DNA from: a virus
DNA length: 64,000 nucleotides
IMG/VR virus record: IMGVR_UViG_3300020060_000011
Location: 375-64,374 of that record
Direction: 5' to 3' (one strand)
Every line of letters starts with the position of its first letter. Position 1 is the stretch's first letter. The position numbers and the translations under genes are program-made. The notes under the pieces were generated by a model. It saw only the letters and a list, made by a program, of their open reading frames with translations. It ran no database searches and had not been told where the DNA came from. This document shows, piece by piece, positions 22,451 to 29,286 of this stretch.

Positions 22451-23557
22451 TCAGACGGCGGTGTCGACGCACAGAACGCCGAAATCTTCGGTGCTCTGCG
22501 TGTGCGTGTTGAAGAAGGTCGGCTTCTTGAACCCGTAGACCTTGCGACCCGCAATGCCGTACCGGTTGTTGTAGTCGTCCTTCTCCTCGTCCCAGCCCGG
22601 TGCGCCGATACCCATCGGGTCGGCGAAGCCGAGCGCCTGCGCGCCCATGAACAGGATGCGCTGCCCGCGTACCGCGCCGCCGCCCCAGGTGCTCGGGTGG
22701 AAGACGTTCCGGTACTCGAGGATGTTCAGACCGTCGATGTAGATGCCGCGCTTACCGCCGTGCGGCGTACCCTTGAAGATCGGGTTCGAATCACCGCGGG
22801 TCTGCGCCTGCTTCCACGCATCGAGGAAGTTCGTGTCCTGCTTCAGCTTCGCCATGCCGTCCGGCGTCATGAAGACGTTGTAGACCTCGACGCCGTCGTC
22901 GGAGCGGAGCGGCTTGAGGAACGTATTGACCGCGTACGCCTTGGCGTTGACGAGCATCGCCCAGGTCGGCGTGTCGGCGATCGCAACCTGCGTGGTGTCG
23001 CCGGCTTCGAGGCCGGTCGTCGCATCCCAGCGGCGATGACGTGCAGCCGTCGGAGCGGTCACGTCGGCCGCGTACTCGAGCTGCGGTAGCTGCGAGCCGA
23101 CGCGCGCCGTGCCATCGGTCTTGAACGTGTAGGCCACGCCCGAGGCGGTGAGGAAAGCCAGCTCGTCCATGACCTGCGCATGGCGATTGCCGACCTGGTC
23201 CTTGGCGTTGTAACGGAACTGCACGATCGACTTCTGGTCGGCCATGCGGCCCGTGTTGGCGTGCCCGAAGCGGATCTGATCGAACAGGATGACGTTCTCG
23301 TCCTGGCTCAGAGCCTCTTCGTTGCCTTTCAACTGGTTATCGCCGACCACGCCGTCGCCGGTCGCGTCATTGATCAGGGTGATGACCGCGCGGTTGCCGG
23401 TCTTGGTGAGCGTCAGCTCGGTGACGCGCTGGATCATGGAGTTCGCGCTATCGCCGGTGAACGGCATCACGAACGACTTGTTGCGGGCCTCGCTCCAGAA
23501 CCGGCGCGACCAGGTGGTCACAGCCTCGTCAGAAAGCGCGGCGAAATTGGTAAGCAT
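22451..23557 (-). CDS. major capsid protein (N4-gp56/DUF4043-like)
   Basis: MLTNFAAL..WSR.FW...R, GDGVVGDNQLKGNEEAL, G.KKP.F...EDFGVL..DTAV patterns; follows portal and scaffold. Confidence 0.9.
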   Translation of the reverse strand: MLTNFAALSDEAVTTWSRRFWSEARNKSFVMPFTGDSANSMIQRVTELTLTKTGNRAVITLINDATGDGVVGDNQLKGNEEALSQDENVILFDQIRFGHANTGRMADQKSIVQFRYNAKDQVGNRHAQVMDELAFLTASGVAYTFKTDGTARVGSQLPQLEYAADVTAPTAARHRRWDATTGLEAGDTTQVAIADTPTWAMLVNAKAYAVNTFLKPLRSDDGVEVYNVFMTPDGMAKLKQDTNFLDAWKQAQTRGDSNPIFKGTPHGGKRGIYIDGLNILEYRNVFHPSTWGGGAVRGQRILFMGAQALGFADPMGIGAPGWDEEKDDYNNRYGIAGRKVYGFKKPTFFNTHTQSTEDFGVLCVDTAV

Positions 23558-23703
23558 GAAAATATCCTCGCCAGAGGGAATAAGGGGGCTGGTGCGGATG
23601 CACCGTGCTTTGCGCCCGAATAACGCTCGGACTGGCGAGTAACACGCAGACTTTGAGCCGATCTGCTAGCGGTTCGGCGTGACGTGCCGAGGACGATACG
23701 CAA

Positions 23704-23732
23704 ACACTAGAACACCGCGCCTGCGTTGGCAA
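23704..23732 (-). promoter_or_regulatory. sigma70-like promoter upstream of the MCP
   Basis: TTGCCA-17 bp-TAGTGT on the minus strand with an AT-rich upstream tract. Confidence 0.55.
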
Positions 23733-23757
23733 GCGCGGAATATCTTTATTTCAAATG

Positions 23758-24165
23758 CTACAAATAGTCGCCGCTTAACTTTTTCTTTTCGCTTTCTGGC
23801 AGTGCTGCAAATTGGTCGTCGGTGAGGTCATGCACACGAACAAACTCGTGCCTAACATCGAGACGAACCGTAGTTATGCAGTCATAGCCGCTGTTGACGG
23901 TTTCCACGAGACCGTCGAGGCCGCCGCCGCGCGCCATCCATACTTTCAGAACGCGGTCCACGTAAGGCTGAAGCTGATCGTCGAACGTTCCTTCAGCTTC
24001 GATGGTGAGCGTGAGCCGCCGCTTATTCGGGTTGGCGGTGCCGTCTGGAATGACCCTAAGCACTTCCTCGCGCGGCCGCGTCGGATCGAATCGGACCGTG
24101 TCGTCAATAAGCACTTCGTAGGGAGCGAACACGCCGCTCTTCTTAGCTTCGGATACGGTGCGCAT
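23758..24165 (-). CDS. hypothetical protein ending in a scaffold-like C-terminal peptide
   Basis: 135 aa; ends DLTDDQFAALPESEKKKLSGDYL; coupled to the scaffold stop. Confidence 0.7.
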   Translation of the reverse strand: MRTVSEAKKSGVFAPYEVLIDDTVRFDPTRPREEVLRVIPDGTANPNKRRLTLTIEAEGTFDDQLQPYVDRVLKVWMARGGGLDGLVETVNSGYDCITTVRLDVRHEFVRVHDLTDDQFAALPESEKKKLSGDYL

Positions 24166-25313
24166 CAGAGGTAATCTCCGCCGAGCTCTTTCTTCTTGCT
24201 CTCGGGGAGCGCGTCGAATTCTTCGTCGGTGAGATCCTTCACCTGGATCTTTTTGCCGTCGGTCGACTTGTCCGAACGGTCACCCTTCGGCGGAATCTTC
24301 TTCGAGTCTTCTACATTTTTCTTAATGTCGGTTTTCTTGTCTGCGGGCTTTTCGTCCTTCTTACCGGCCTTTTCGTCTTTCTCTTCCTTGGCCTTCGGCG
24401 CCTGCTTGGCGAACGGGTCGACCTCGAAGATCATCGCCGCCGCGCGGCGCAGGGCGCGCGGACCCGTCATGCCCATCTTTTCGTACGCCGTGACCTGGAA
24501 GTTCAACTCCTTGACGACGTCCTCGTCGAACAGCTCGTGCTTCGGGTTCAGCACCGGGCGTGCTTCTTCGAGGAATTCGAGCATGCTGTCGAATGTCGTG
24601 TTCTGCTGCGCAGCGAACGCTTCCTGGCGCGCGTCGGCCTTCGCCTCGGCACGGATCGCCTGCTGATTCAGCTTGTCGATTTCGCGCTGCAGCGCCGCGG
24701 CCTTCTTGGTGTCGTTGTCCGCGCGCGCTTCCTCGACCTCCTGATAGAGCCCGGCGATCTTCGTTTCGAACTCCTCGGCAACCGCCTTGTCGTCCTTGGC
24801 CGTCGACTTTTGTGCCTTTTCGAGCTCGGTAACGCGCGCGTTGAGCAGCGCCGCCTTCTCGCGCGCTTTGTTGCGCTGATCTACAAGAGTGCGGATGCGG
24901 TGGTTCGAGCTGCCTTTGTCGTCCTTGTCGTCGGCGTCCTCCTCTTCTTCCTCCGTCTCTTCCTCGTTCTCTAATTCCTCGCCTTCGGCGTCCTTGTCGG
25001 CGTCTTCCTTGCCCTTGTCGCCCGCAGCTTTCTTGCCCGCTCCCTTCTTGCCGGCAGCGTCATCGGCATCATCGTCGGCGGCGTCGGCGTCGTCATCGGA
25101 CTTTTCCCCTTTTGCAAAACGGCCCTTGGTGTCGCGCGCCTTGTCGTCGGCGTCCTTGTCGTCGGCTTTGTCCTTGGATTTGTCGGCGGCTTTGTCCTTG
25201 CTGGTACCCTTGTCCTTGTCGTCAGCGTCGCCAGACGGAACGAAGTCGCTGCCATCGGCAGCAGTCTTCAGCTCGTCGAGCTCCCGTTCGATCTCGGTTT
25301 TTTCGATGGTCAT
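24165..25313 (-). CDS. capsid scaffolding protein
   Basis: 382 aa, highly charged with coiled coil, between portal and MCP; RDxKGRF motif. Confidence 0.8.
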   Translation of the reverse strand: MTIEKTEIERELDELKTAADGSDFVPSGDADDKDKGTSKDKAADKSKDKADDKDADDKARDTKGRFAKGEKSDDDADAADDDADDAAGKKGAGKKAAGDKGKEDADKDAEGEELENEEETEEEEEDADDKDDKGSSNHRIRTLVDQRNKAREKAALLNARVTELEKAQKSTAKDDKAVAEEFETKIAGLYQEVEEARADNDTKKAAALQREIDKLNQQAIRAEAKADARQEAFAAQQNTTFDSMLEFLEEARPVLNPKHELFDEDVVKELNFQVTAYEKMGMTGPRALRRAAAMIFEVDPFAKQAPKAKEEKDEKAGKKDEKPADKKTDIKKNVEDSKKIPPKGDRSDKSTDGKKIQVKDLTDEEFDALPESKKKELGGDYL

Positions 25314-27427
25314 GTTGAAGCTCCTGCTGGGGTTTTGTTTGTAGTTTTTGGCGGCTGCGCCGCCTTGGCGATCAGCGTCTGGATGTGACGCGAATTCTCA
25401 GAATCGATCTTGGTCAGCGAGACCGCAGTGTCGCGGTCGCTGGTACGGCGCTGCAGGCCGACCTTTTCGCGCTCCAGCCCCAGACGCTCGCGTTCCAGCT
25501 GCGCGTCCGAAGCGATGCGGTTGTTCTCGACGCGCTCGTACGCCGCATCCGGGTCGGTCTGTGATTCGATGGTCGCCTTATTGGCGCGCGCGGTATTGAG
25601 GTCGGCCGCGCTCTGTTCCTTCGTGGCCTTGGCCTGCAAGAGCTGCTGCTGGAGCGCAGCGTTCTGCTCTTCGAGCTGCTGCATGCGCTGCTGTGCCTCG
25701 TTGGCGTCGCCTTTCAGCATCTGGATCAGCTGCCCCTTGTTCGGCGCGTTCGAGAGCTCGATCATCAGCTCGTCGGGGATCTGGATACCCAGCTTCTCGC
25801 GGAGCATGACCATCTGCGCGAACTCACCCTCGGTCATGACCGAGCGCGCGGGCGAGGGCACCAGCACCGTCGTGTACTTGCCCTTCGTGACGTCGTTCAG
25901 CATCGTGCCTTCCGGCGTTGGCTGGTTGATCGTCACCGTCTTGAACTCGGGCTTGTACGTCGAGCCGCGGTTGACCATGATCGCGCGGGTCTCGGTGTAG
26001 GTCGTCTGCACGCAGTCGAGCACGCGCATCGCAAGGAGCTGCTTGGTGCGGTGCAGGTTCGACAGCGGCCCGGCGAAATTCACGTCGGACGCCGCCTGGT
26101 TCAGCTCGATCGCTTCGCCCGATACGTCCTCGCGCGCAAAGCCACGCGCGCCGTTCGGCACGCCGGACAGCGTACGCATGATCGTGTCGGCTTTCTGACT
26201 GAGACGATCGTGCGCCGGCGGCACCTGGTTCGGCTCGATCTTTTCCGTCTGGCTGACATCGTCCACTTCGAGGAACAGCCCCGTCATCGACCCGGCGACT
26301 TCCATTTCCTGCGGCGTGTAGTTTTTGATGTTGCCTTTCTTCGACTTCCAGCCGCTGTTCGCCGTCGTATTGATGATGTGCAATTCCTGCGACGTCACCT
26401 TGTTATAGAGCATCTGCGGATCGAGCAGATTCTCCACCGCGCCGATCGTCACCCCGTCGATGCAGGTCGGGAAGAACGGCACGACCGTGAACCATTTGTA
26501 CGGGCTATCCTCGTCGTGCAGGACCACGTCCTCGCACGTCACCGTCCAGCGCACGGTCTTGACCTTGCGCTTCATAGTGCTAAGACCTGGGGTCACTTCG
26601 AGCACGTGCGCGATGCGGTTGTGATCCCACGTCTCAGGGATTTCGTTCGTGTCGCCCGTCTCGGTGTCGACGAAGACGTTCTTCATCTTCAGGACGTAAT
26701 ACTGGCGATCGAGGATCTTCAGTGCGCGGACCAGCTTGTCGTCGATCTCGCCGTTGGTATAGCCGAGCGCGAAATGCGGCAAAGCGCCGAACTGTTTCGC
26801 CAGCAGCGAGTCTTCAAAGTCGAAGTACGTCGGCATGTTGGCGTGCTTCAGCGCTTCGGCCTTGTCCTTGCCGAACATGTGCTCGACATCGAGCAGGTTC
26901 GTCCACCGGCGCGTGTAGACCTGCGGCCAGGTTTTCGGGTCGTAGTCGGTGAAGCACGGATCAAGCACAACGTCGGAGCTGCGCAGGCCGCTGATGCAGA
27001 CGTCGCCCTGCAGCTGGTCGTCGTAGTCCACACGAACGTCGTAGTAGCCGCGCCCGGTGATGAGGCCGCGCTCGTAGACCTCCGTCTCGAGGAAATCGAT
27101 CGCGTTCTGGTTCTGAATATGCAGCCACAGCGCGTCCTGCGCCTGCGCCGTTTCGCTGGTCGCGCCGGACACCGGGCTGAAGCGCACGTCGTTCCGCAGC
27201 GCGCGCTGCACGCCTTTCATGGTGCGCACCAGCGACTCGATCACATTCAACGTCAGATGCGGTCGACCCGCCTTCTTCAGCTTCGAAACGTCTTCCTGCG
27301 ACCACTGGTTGCTGCGCCAAAACTCGAAGCAACGGTGCGCCTTTACCAGCCACTCGCTGTGCCCGTTGTCCACGGCGTATCTATAGTTCTCGTAGTTGAA
27401 ACGAGCGGTATCGAAGTCAGTTGCCAT
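25310..27427 (-). CDS. portal protein (P22/N4-like)
   Basis: MATDFD start; QWS.ED...L...GRP.LT.N, LLDPQ..YNK..S...H.INT.ANSGW motifs; follows TerL. Confidence 0.9.
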   Translation of the reverse strand: MATDFDTARFNYENYRYAVDNGHSEWLVKAHRCFEFWRSNQWSQEDVSKLKKAGRPHLTLNVIESLVRTMKGVQRALRNDVRFSPVSGATSETAQAQDALWLHIQNQNAIDFLETEVYERGLITGRGYYDVRVDYDDQLQGDVCISGLRSSDVVLDPCFTDYDPKTWPQVYTRRWTNLLDVEHMFGKDKAEALKHANMPTYFDFEDSLLAKQFGALPHFALGYTNGEIDDKLVRALKILDRQYYVLKMKNVFVDTETGDTNEIPETWDHNRIAHVLEVTPGLSTMKRKVKTVRWTVTCEDVVLHDEDSPYKWFTVVPFFPTCIDGVTIGAVENLLDPQMLYNKVTSQELHIINTTANSGWKSKKGNIKNYTPQEMEVAGSMTGLFLEVDDVSQTEKIEPNQVPPAHDRLSQKADTIMRTLSGVPNGARGFAREDVSGEAIELNQAASDVNFAGPLSNLHRTKQLLAMRVLDCVQTTYTETRAIMVNRGSTYKPEFKTVTINQPTPEGTMLNDVTKGKYTTVLVPSPARSVMTEGEFAQMVMLREKLGIQIPDELMIELSNAPNKGQLIQMLKGDANEAQQRMQQLEEQNAALQQQLLQAKATKEQSAADLNTARANKATIESQTDPDAAYERVENNRIASDAQLERERLGLEREKVGLQRRTSDRDTAVSLTKIDSENSRHIQTLIAKAAQPPKTTNKTPAGAST

Positions 27428-27429
27428 GA

Positions 27430-29286
27430 TCAGGCGGCCATGTGGGTAGTGTTGCTCGTTCCAGAGATTACGTCCTTCCAACTCTTCAACTTCGGCGGCG
27501 CGGCAGCCGACGACGGCAGCGACAGATTCATCGACAACCGCGCGCCCCAAGCCAGCATGTCGACGATGTCGTCGTGCGTGCCGTTCGGGAATCGCAGCAG
27601 CTCTTTCTCGACCTCGTCGTATATTTCCGGCCGCACCGCGTCGGAGTACGAGAAAATGAGCCGGTGGCGCTGCGTGCGACCTTGCAGCGGCCGCGCGCGC
27701 ACTTCCTTGTCCTGCATCGGCACCAGCGACTCGTCGAACGGCAAATACAGCCGCTTGGCGTCGAGCTGCTTGCGCAGGTCCGGCCAAATCGCTTCGTAAA
27801 TCTGTCCGCGCTCGCCGGCGAAGACCTCGGGATTCCACTTCTCGACCAGCCCAATGATCGCGCTGGTTATTTCCTGCGAATTCCAGCGACCGCGCACGAC
27901 GTCTAGGAGGTACAGATCGTCGGTGTCGGAGAGAGCGAACGCGCCGCCGACCGTCCAGTCCTTCTTCGACGTCCGTTTGCTAATGGCGAAGTCGAACGTG
28001 ATGAAGCGGCGCATCACCGGCAGGTACTCCGGCTGCAGCAGACGGTAGCGGAAGTCGCTCTTCTTGAAAAAGTCGCCGTCTTCCGGCGTAGGGTTCTGCT
28101 GGTAGAGCGCGGCCCACAGCGCCGAGCCGAGCGTGTGCTTGAGCTTCATCAGCTCAGTCAGCGGGTACCGCTCCGGGTGCAGCGCCTCACCCTTCTTGCG
28201 CAGCAGACGCGCTTCGACTTCGCCCTCCGGCGGCGCGCCGGGGAATATCTCACCGGTACTGAGCAACCACTCGTCGTCGTTCGCAACGGCGGGGTAGCTG
28301 ATAACGTCCCACTGTTCGAGCTCTTCCTCGGGGACACCTTGCTTGCGCAGCATCTCCTCTTTGGAGAGCTCTTGCCCCTGCACGTCGGCGTCGTGCCAGC
28401 GCGTGCCGATCAGCAAGATACCGCCGCCGGGCGCCAAGCGTGTGCGAAACACCGACTGGTACCACTTGTAGGCTTTCTCGCGGATGACCTCGGACTGCGC
28501 CTGCTCTTCGTCCTTGATCAGATCGTCGGCGATACCGATGTGCATGCCCTTGCCGTTGATGCCGACACCGACGCCGGCCGCTATGTAGCCGCCGCCCTTC
28601 GTCGTCTTCCATGCCTCAACACCTTCCGTGCGCAAGCGCGTGTCGCCGAACATCGCCGCGTACTCTTCATCGGCGATGCGATCGCGGATGTTGCGGCTGA
28701 ACTCGAGCGGCAGGCTTTGCGCGTAGCTCGCGCCGATGATGCCCCACTCTGGGTGCTTACCCAGCACCCACGATGGGAAAATGTCGGACGCCAATACGGA
28801 TTTTCCACTTCGCGGAGGCATAGCTATCATCAAACGCGGCGACTCGCCGCGCTCGACGCGCTCGACGAACTTTTCCAGCCGCCGGCATATATCCTGATGC
28901 ACCCATCCCGGCTTGTACTCCGGCTGAAACAAAACCGTGAAGAATACCAGCCGGCGCTTCGCCAACTCGCGGCGCGCCAGCTCACGATGGATGATCTCTT
29001 CGTTCGACTCCGGCACTTTCGTATCGGCCGGCTTGACCAAGAGGCGCGTCTGCGCCTCCGTGCGCCGCCCCTCGACGATGCGCTCGGCGGCGAACACCGC
29101 GTCGACGATCGCTTTCGTCGCATAGGCGTGGAAACGGCGGTACAGCGTGATCGTGCCTTCGCGCTTCTCGCAATGGACACAGAAGTCCATATAAAGCTGC
29201 TGCGGTTTCGTCGCGAACAGCCGGTACTCGTTCAGCGTACGATCCACTCCGCAGGCGCGGCAGGCGATTTTCAGCTCGTCGGTCAC
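27430..29286 (-). CDS. terL: terminase large subunit with N-terminal CxxC-CxxC extension
   Basis: Walker A MPPRSGKS, Walker B IGIADD, nuclease FITFDFA and FPNGTHDDIVD; GTGA overlap with the TerS stop. Confidence 0.95.
   Translation of the reverse strand: MTDELKIACRACGVDRTLNEYRLFATKPQQLYMDFCVHCEKREGTITLYRRFHAYATKAIVDAVFAAERIVEGRRTEAQTRLLVKPADTKVPESNEEIIHRELARRELAKRRLVFFTVLFQPEYKPGWVHQDICRRLEKFVERVERGESPRLMIAMPPRSGKSVLASDIFPSWVLGKHPEWGIIGASYAQSLPLEFSRNIRDRIADEEYAAMFGDTRLRTEGVEAWKTTKGGGYIAAGVGVGINGKGMHIGIADDLIKDEEQAQSEVIREKAYKWYQSVFRTRLAPGGGILLIGTRWHDADVQGQELSKEEMLRKQGVPEEELEQWDVISYPAVANDDEWLLSTGEIFPGAPPEGEVEARLLRKKGEALHPERYPLTELMKLKHTLGSALWAALYQQNPTPEDGDFFKKSDFRYRLLQPEYLPVMRRFITFDFAISKRTSKKDWTVGGAFALSDTDDLYLLDVVRGRWNSQEITSAIIGLVEKWNPEVFAGERGQIYEAIWPDLRKQLDAKRLYLPFDESLVPMQDKEVRARPLQGRTQRHRLIFSYSDAVRPEIYDEVEKELLRFPNGTHDDIVDMLAWGARLSMNLSLPSSAAAPPKLKSWKDVISGTSNTTHMAA

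Follow-up and report, generated by a model that had tools for sequence, protein, structure and literature searches.

In phage T4, a capsid-targeting sequence common to several proteins, i.e., IPI-III and Alt, is located at the N-terminus of these proteins and is clipped, and in encapsulins, cargo-loading peptides serve non-viral shells. As for phage P22, we know of no natural second protein that carries the tail of its scaffold. The contact between the P22 scaffold and coat involves scaffold residues R293/K296 and residues D14/E18 of the coat N-arm (PMC9965877), and proteins fused to a truncated P22 scaffold get packaged (PMC9962691). In SaPI, the CpmB protein shares the C-terminal element of the 80alpha scaffold and competes for the same coat site (PMC5644958). 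A literature search, which was of incomplete coverage, returned no natural case in which both proteins belong to the same phage.

Here, we analyzed a 64,000-nt stretch of DNA (hereafter, the window) that covers most of a 67.6-kb viral contig, in which an apparent head scaffolding protein of 382 aa and the protein encoded immediately downstream of it, termed here ORF135, end in the same motif. This double-tail arrangement is known from one assembly. Like P22 gp8, the scaffold is encoded in a portal-scaffold-coat gene order and is predicted to end in a C-terminal two-helix motif (PMC9965877, PMC12005531). In its family, an Arg of the tail may pair with an acidic N-arm residue, as in P22; the corresponding pair in the phage studied here, tail residue 24 and capsid residue 19, is Gly or Ser with Arg. 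ORF135 resembles the cargo fusions made with P22 (PMC9962691) in that a foreign domain is placed before the tail, yet those fusions used scaffold fragments 238-303 or 141-303, whereas the natural tag described here comprises ~25 residues. It also resembles SaPI1 CpmB, as both are small second proteins with an N-terminal domain of their own and a diverged copy of the scaffold C-terminal element, and ORF135 could use the same site by the N-arm helix. However, CpmB is satellite-encoded and conserved, dimerises by a helical domain, shrinks the capsid and carries a RIIK motif, whereas ORF135 is encoded in the phage's own head operon, coupled to the scaffold, was found once, and has an alpha/beta domain and a different motif, without RIIK. 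By analogy, ORF135 would work like CpmB or like an engineered P22 scaffold fusion, and is a member of neither group. Similarly to the T4 capsid-targeting sequence and the encapsulin peptides, the tail is a short terminal peptide on an unrelated protein, which it would direct into the interior of an HK97-fold shell; unlike the T4 sequence, it is C-terminal, a copy of the scaffold's own end, and was found on one protein rather than on multiple cargos. The nearest cultured phages by capsid protein (48%), i.e., the Kochitakasuvirus phages KPP25, R18 and A1002 (PMC13730344), share the same head gene order, but in KPP25 the capsid gene directly follows that of the scaffold, whose end has diverged. 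A search for procapsid or scaffold structures from these phages returned none.

Two copies of the scaffold tail in one head gene cluster

The phage encodes an integrase, and its head genes are ordered as follows: terminase, P22-like portal, the 382-aa gene, ORF135, a 200-nt leader and a PF13252 major capsid protein (Table 1). The 382-aa protein has an acidic low-complexity N-terminus, predicted to be followed by a long coiled-coil hairpin, a flexible linker and a C-terminal two-helix motif, and an AF2 model of residues 130-382 (pLDDT 84) presents the coiled-coil hairpin and two short end helices, the latter with a pLDDT of 84-89. Searches of Pfam, PHROGs and PDB sequences did not yield a name for the protein, nor a match to P22 gp8 or any other scaffold, remote homology being still possible. 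Given its position between the P22-like portal and the PF13252 capsid gene, together with its acidic low-complexity N-terminus and the coiled-coil model, the protein appears to be the head scaffolding protein, a label that rests on position and architecture and that agrees with the identification made in an earlier, sequence-only reading of the window. Within the coiled-coil hairpin, the turn (residues ~190-215; ~24500-24800, minus strand) has a pattern conserved in the family, A-x-x-D-G/N-D-x-K-x-A, which presumably resembles the helix-turn-helix of P22 gp8 and could be a second binding site.

The same reading had pointed out that the scaffold and the adjacent 135-aa protein, otherwise unrelated, end in a shared peptide, that the DNA of the second copy is diverged and AT-richer while the peptide is conserved, and that this suggests selection at the protein level. 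These observations were borne out by our analysis. Both genes, on the minus strand, end in a shared stretch of 25 codons, slightly longer than first noted, with a stop codon directly after each. The two copies are located 407 nt apart, are identical in 18/25 residues and differ in 25/78 nt, and a profile comparison of the scaffold and ORF135 outside the tail gave a probability of 0.3%. Fifteen of the 23 coding differences fall in third codon positions (pS 0.84, pN 0.17; Fisher p 2e-6), and when sequences were randomly mutated to an equal nucleotide distance, at least 18 identical residues were retained in 1/100,000 runs; a simulation of neutral decay, described below, likewise spoke for protein-level selection. 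In terms of GC content at third codon positions (GC3), copy 2 stands at 0.56 vs. 0.76 for copy 1. The match between the peptides is neither a product of chance nor a recent exact repeat. A tail HMM run over the 67.6-kb genome detected these two copies and no third.

Table 1. Features of the scaffold-capsid region (window coordinates, except in the last row, where positions refer to the loci named)
Feature	Position	Strand	Basis or remark
P22-like portal protein	25310..27430 (start approximate)	minus	PF16510 E 1e-86
Scaffold (382 aa), apparent	24165..25313	minus	flanked by the portal and capsid genes, as it is in every relative
Candidate -1 shift site region	24228..24255	minus	C-AAA-AAG 24249-24255 and weak 5-bp hairpin
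Tail copy 1 (scaffold C-terminal motif, putative coat-binding handle)	24165..24242	minus	Gly replaces family Arg of L-R-G-D
ORF135 translation start: SD and stop/start overlap	24163..24179	minus	anti-SD pairing
ORF135 (135 aa, 15.3 kDa, pI 5.1)	23758..24165	minus	46 poorly modelled residues, accessory domain and tail copy 2
Accessory domain, ORF135 residues 47-109	23839..24027	minus	phmmer homologues, alignment, model
Tail copy 2, ORF135 residues 111-135 and stop	23758..23835	minus	Ser replaces family Arg; all core residues kept
Conserved non-coding capsid-gene leader	23558..23757	minus	copy 2 adjoins normal downstream sequence
Major capsid protein	22451..23557	minus	PF13252 / phrog_334; 48% identical to KPP25
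Slot-insert loci	L033 4011-4193, L034 4053-4385, L023 ~1000-1750, L011 2348-3977, L012 3340-3872, L029 up to 726		

The tail motif across the scaffold family and capsid residue 19

A profile search with the tail matched 261 proteins; bar one probable chimera, all of the 118 others that were listed proved to be scaffolds, or pieces of scaffolds, with the motif at their very end. In this exception (P0128; L082 17-430), found on a single 565-nt contig, a DUF6259 piece is in frame with the last 55 scaffold residues and is followed by a normal capsid leader. No credible fusion of the tail to a non-scaffold protein was found among the 118 database matches listed, and a second tail copy was found in none of the related loci: among the 141 loci with a tail match, the genome studied here alone has two. 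The sequence-only reading had called for a survey of relatives for different N-terminal domains bearing this tag, and in these 141 loci and 118 listed matches the idea of a family-wide tag found no support; what we observed is a single fusion, not a family tag system.

Across the family, the tail is the most conserved part of the scaffold and is always C-terminal. Its end reads L-R-G-D, with the Arg present in 102/103 distinct tails, and it is this family Arg (position 24) that is replaced in both copies studied here, by Gly in copy 1 and by Ser in copy 2. We scanned every capsid column for co-change with the tail across 93 distinct scaffold/capsid pairs, and found that no other column came within three orders of magnitude of residue 19 of the capsid N-arm in its association. 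All six non-Arg24 tails pair with a basic residue at this position, as compared to 1/87 Arg24 tails; in the phage studied here the residue (23501-23503) is Arg, and in most relatives it is Asp. The six non-Arg tails belong to three separate lineages (a single origin was rejected, p-AU 1e-5), and the co-change of tail Arg24 and capsid residue 19 amounts to three events, too few for a sign test. The sites involved are 23501-23503 with 24165-24242 in the window, and loci L013, L090, L092, L093 and L101. A DNA pattern search for further Arg19 capsids returned none.

At the level of sequence, these three coupled changes predict a scaffold-coat contact across the PF13252 phage group. As the co-change of tail Arg24 and capsid residue 19 mirrors the contact described in P22, we infer that the motif is the coat-binding handle of the scaffold family. 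The earlier claim that the tail binds the capsid protein thus gains indirect support, in the form of co-change with N-arm residue 19, which is not in itself binding. Both tail copies carry a variant that fits their own capsid, i.e., non-Arg24 with capsid Arg19; the co-change bears, however, on the motif and not on copy 2, whose Ser24 could be plain inheritance. The tail has no detectable sequence kinship to the P22 or 80alpha scaffolds, and its matches in PDB sequences (designed helical repeats and villin headpiece; E 0.24) were taken as chance. Whatever the role of ORF135, the survey delineates a C-terminal motif of 25 residues common to a large unnamed scaffold family, that of the PF13252-capsid phages, and predicts one contact of this motif with the capsid N-arm; the motif could serve as a compact packaging tag.

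The ORF135 domain and the insertion slot

Family searches with ORF135 (Pfam, PHROGs, cultured phages, viral contigs and a word-indexed protein set) gave no match. Using phmmer against 1.84 billion proteins, four standalone proteins of 72-89 aa were found to match residues 47-108 of ORF135, with E values of 4e-6 to 2e-4; two further matches, a WD40 protein and an InlB-repeat protein, reflected summed weak repeats and were discarded. The homologues have no Pfam or PHROG model, the scaffold tail is absent from all four, and the three with readable contigs belong to unrelated phages, where their neighbors are small genes and the head genes are elsewhere. A conserved Y-x4-L-x2-W-x2-R-G was observed in the homologue loci (L035 6001-6222, L037 795-1064, L038 489-707). 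As to conservation of the ORF, a point on which the sequence-only reading had let its proposal hinge, the fusion was found in one genome alone, whereas the domain has standalone homologues.

The accessory domain was modeled as beta-alpha-beta-beta (pLDDT 78-88). In fold searches, no structure clearly matched the domain (best Z 4.6; best viral E 0.014), and T-fold enzyme look-alikes in Atlas (TM ~0.7 over 62-66 residues) were too short to assign function. Since the homologues end a few residues past a conserved His at position 106, and the scaffold motif begins at 110-111, ORF135 reads as a complete accessory domain joined in frame to a complete motif, without the scaffold linker.

The start of ORF135 overlaps the scaffold stop codon (TGATG, 24163-24167), and its SD, GGAGA (24175-24179), is built from the tail-1 codons GGA and GAT. 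Both codons are rare in the late genes, where GGA accounts for 16/216 Gly codons and GAT for 44/233 Asp codons, and at the same positions copy 2 has the common codons GGC and GAC. The anti-SD pairing of ORF135 was calculated at -6.6 kcal/mol, compared to -6.6 for the scaffold and -6.4 for the capsid gene. No separate promoter was found for ORF135, and, judging by its sequence, the gene is likely translated.

In close relatives, the scaffold stop codon lies ~200 nt before the capsid start, with an alignable leader, and the stop codon of copy 2 lies 201 nt before it. Copy 2 therefore occupies the ancestral position of the scaffold end, and what has been added is a stretch of 407 nt made up of tail 1 and the accessory gene. 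Insertions at this slot are frequent, the scaffold-capsid gap being >330 nt in 25/102 pairs, and in L033 and L034 it contains unrelated coupled ORFs, without the tail. In about one in four relatives the slot holds unrelated accessory genes, among them HNH-like endonucleases and, in Bcep22, a CsrA-like gene. In the phage studied here, a mobile accessory gene landed at the 3' end of the scaffold gene, with one tail ending the scaffold and the other fused in frame to the domain.

At both the DNA and protein level, the sequence nearest to copy 2 is copy 1, if narrowly so (49/69 nt vs. 46). We considered a descent of copy 2 from the AP1-like subfamily, with which it shares Gln11 and Glu19, and preferred a local origin, given the closeness of copy 1 and the local non-Arg24. 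L013, which like copy 2 has Ser24 in its tail, groups with both the portal and the capsid proteins; for the scaffold core, the closest sequences are those of L033/L034, not L013. Neither placement was rejected in the scaffold-core trees (p-AU 0.27 and 0.30), which do not demonstrate a scaffold swap. Copy 2 may stem from a local duplication, or it may be the native scaffold end, left in place by a cassette swap.

Selection on copy 2 and readings of the fusion

The low pN/pS is on its own insufficient to establish present selection on copy 2, as it could date from a time when both copies were scaffold ends. Codon usage offers a second line of evidence. The GC3 of copy 2 is 14/25 (binomial p 0.008 vs. 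scaffold GC3 0.79), its CAI is 0.38 vs. 0.62, and its GC3 contrasts with that of the clade scaffold tails (0.74-0.96) and of the adjacent capsid gene (0.89). Both values are like those of the rest of ORF135 (0.45-0.48), and the codon adaptation of copy 2 is among the lowest 2 of 120 late-gene windows, as measured with a reference set that took in ~75 codons upstream of the true portal start. In codon-drift tests, which draw on 25 codons and assume a GC-rich ancestor, neutral decay that reached the GC3 of copy 2 left the frame open and the nine core residues intact in 9% of runs at 0.1 substitutions/site and in 0.2% of runs at 0.3 substitutions/site, and when half of the observed changes were given neutrally to copy 2, the profile score was preserved in 0.1% of runs. 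Of the residues conserved in >75% of the family, copy 2 lacks only Glu11 and Arg24, and the substitutions it carries are also seen elsewhere among the scaffolds. As the codons have drifted, yet every core residue has been kept, the data favor selection on copy 2 after the fusion, a case that is good, though short of decisive. Against the family profile, the score of copy 2 falls in the bottom 1%, and its binding may thus be weak.

We lean towards a reading in which ORF135 is a functional fusion with the scaffold tail, formed as a one-off, that docks on the wall of the procapsid, and is probably pulled into the assembling head; that such a fusion would be packageable follows from the P22 scaffold-fusion precedent and from SaPI CpmB. 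Ribosomes finishing the scaffold would restart on ORF135 by translational coupling, such that the protein would be made late and at a lower level. Tail 2 would then fold into two short helices and occupy, on the inside of the procapsid wall, the site that the scaffold itself uses, i.e., the N-arm helix of the capsid protein, and ORF135 would be co-assembled as a minor passenger, unable to build a scaffold core in the absence of the scaffold coiled coil. Upon refolding of the N-arm it would either exit with the scaffold or remain as virion cargo, and we regard a transient passenger that mildly tunes assembly and a retained cargo as about equally likely. If true, ORF135 is a natural example of the particle trick engineered with P22, and a snapshot of the birth of a capsid-loading signal, in which an accessory gene captured the scaffold's own end; the weight of this is limited, as the fusion was found once. 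A bolder version, which we regard as unlikely, is that a phage needs just one step to make capsid cargo of any accessory gene, namely its insertion at the 3' end of the scaffold gene, where it captures the ~25-residue tail, and that ORF135 is such a fusion, which stays in the virion and is delivered to the host with the DNA.

A functional tail has to be weighed against an inert recombination scar, to which we assign a low probability as well. Either a cassette of scaffold and accessory gene would have replaced the native scaffold, or the accessory gene would have entered its 3' end, and the old end would have been fused by chance; the residue conservation would then have arisen while both copies were scaffold ends, and copy 2 would now be jobless. 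In line with this, copy 2 sits in the ancestral position, and its Ser24 recurs in L013, to which the portal and capsid are closest, whereas the scaffold core is closest to L033/L034. In addition, the slot is prone to insertions and the fusion is unique. However, a recent scar should retain GC-rich codons, as the clade tails and the capsid gene do, whereas copy 2 has lost them without losing a single core residue over its 25 codons. Moreover, the join is in frame, with both parts trimmed at their natural limits, and the trees demonstrate no scaffold swap.

The conservation of copy 2 would also be accounted for if some ribosomes slipped by -1 at C-AAA-AAG before tail 1, yielding a ~517-aa form of the scaffold that lacks tail 1 and continues instead with an Arg-rich linker, the accessory domain and, at its very end, tail 2, kept as a needed coat-binding end. 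Scaffold codons 354-355 are the only in-frame AAA-AAG among the late genes tested, a 5-bp hairpin follows them at a distance of 5 nt, and no stop codon interrupts the -1 frame between the shift site and ORF135. Yet the heptamer is imperfect and the hairpin weak, the region is Lys-rich, a run of 38 open -1 codons is ordinary here (mean run 53), and ORF135 has an SD and a coupled start of its own, all of which renders such an extended scaffold decidedly unlikely.

We give still less credence to the possibility that the tail functions with another partner (the portal, another scaffold or a host factor), or that ORF135 titrates capsid protein outside the head, e.g., against a satellite or a related phage. 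While C-terminal parts of the P22 scaffold also contact the portal (PMC12005531), the co-change found in the scan of capsid columns points to capsid residue 19. Likewise, CpmB works by competition (PMC5644958) and an integrase-bearing phage meets co-resident elements, but no satellite is in evidence, and the coupling of ORF135 to a late scaffold gene, with no separate promoter found, makes its expression in a lysogen unlikely. Finally, an assembly artefact, namely a chimeric join of two related genomes, is highly improbable: although the arrangement comes from a single contig and the protein has no second record, the copies differ at 32% of bases, the flanking portal and capsid genes are both closest to one and the same relative, and the codon use of copy 2 matches that of ORF135.

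Two further observations concern the neighboring genes. The leader of the capsid gene (23558-23757, minus strand) is conserved across relatives, with a hairpin over promoter-like hexamers; it also contains two hairpins that resemble each other in their 7-nt loops and in whose stems 6/10 predicted pairs have changed on both sides. In the nearest relatives, the capsid ribosome-binding site may be covered by a long-range stem. The leader has no match in Rfam, and is a candidate structured RNA controlling capsid synthesis. In L013 (1-2164), the terminase large subunit of this nearest relative is 950 aa long and has a LAGLIDADG_3 match, as compared to 628 aa in the phage studied here, which suggests that the L013 protein contains an intein.
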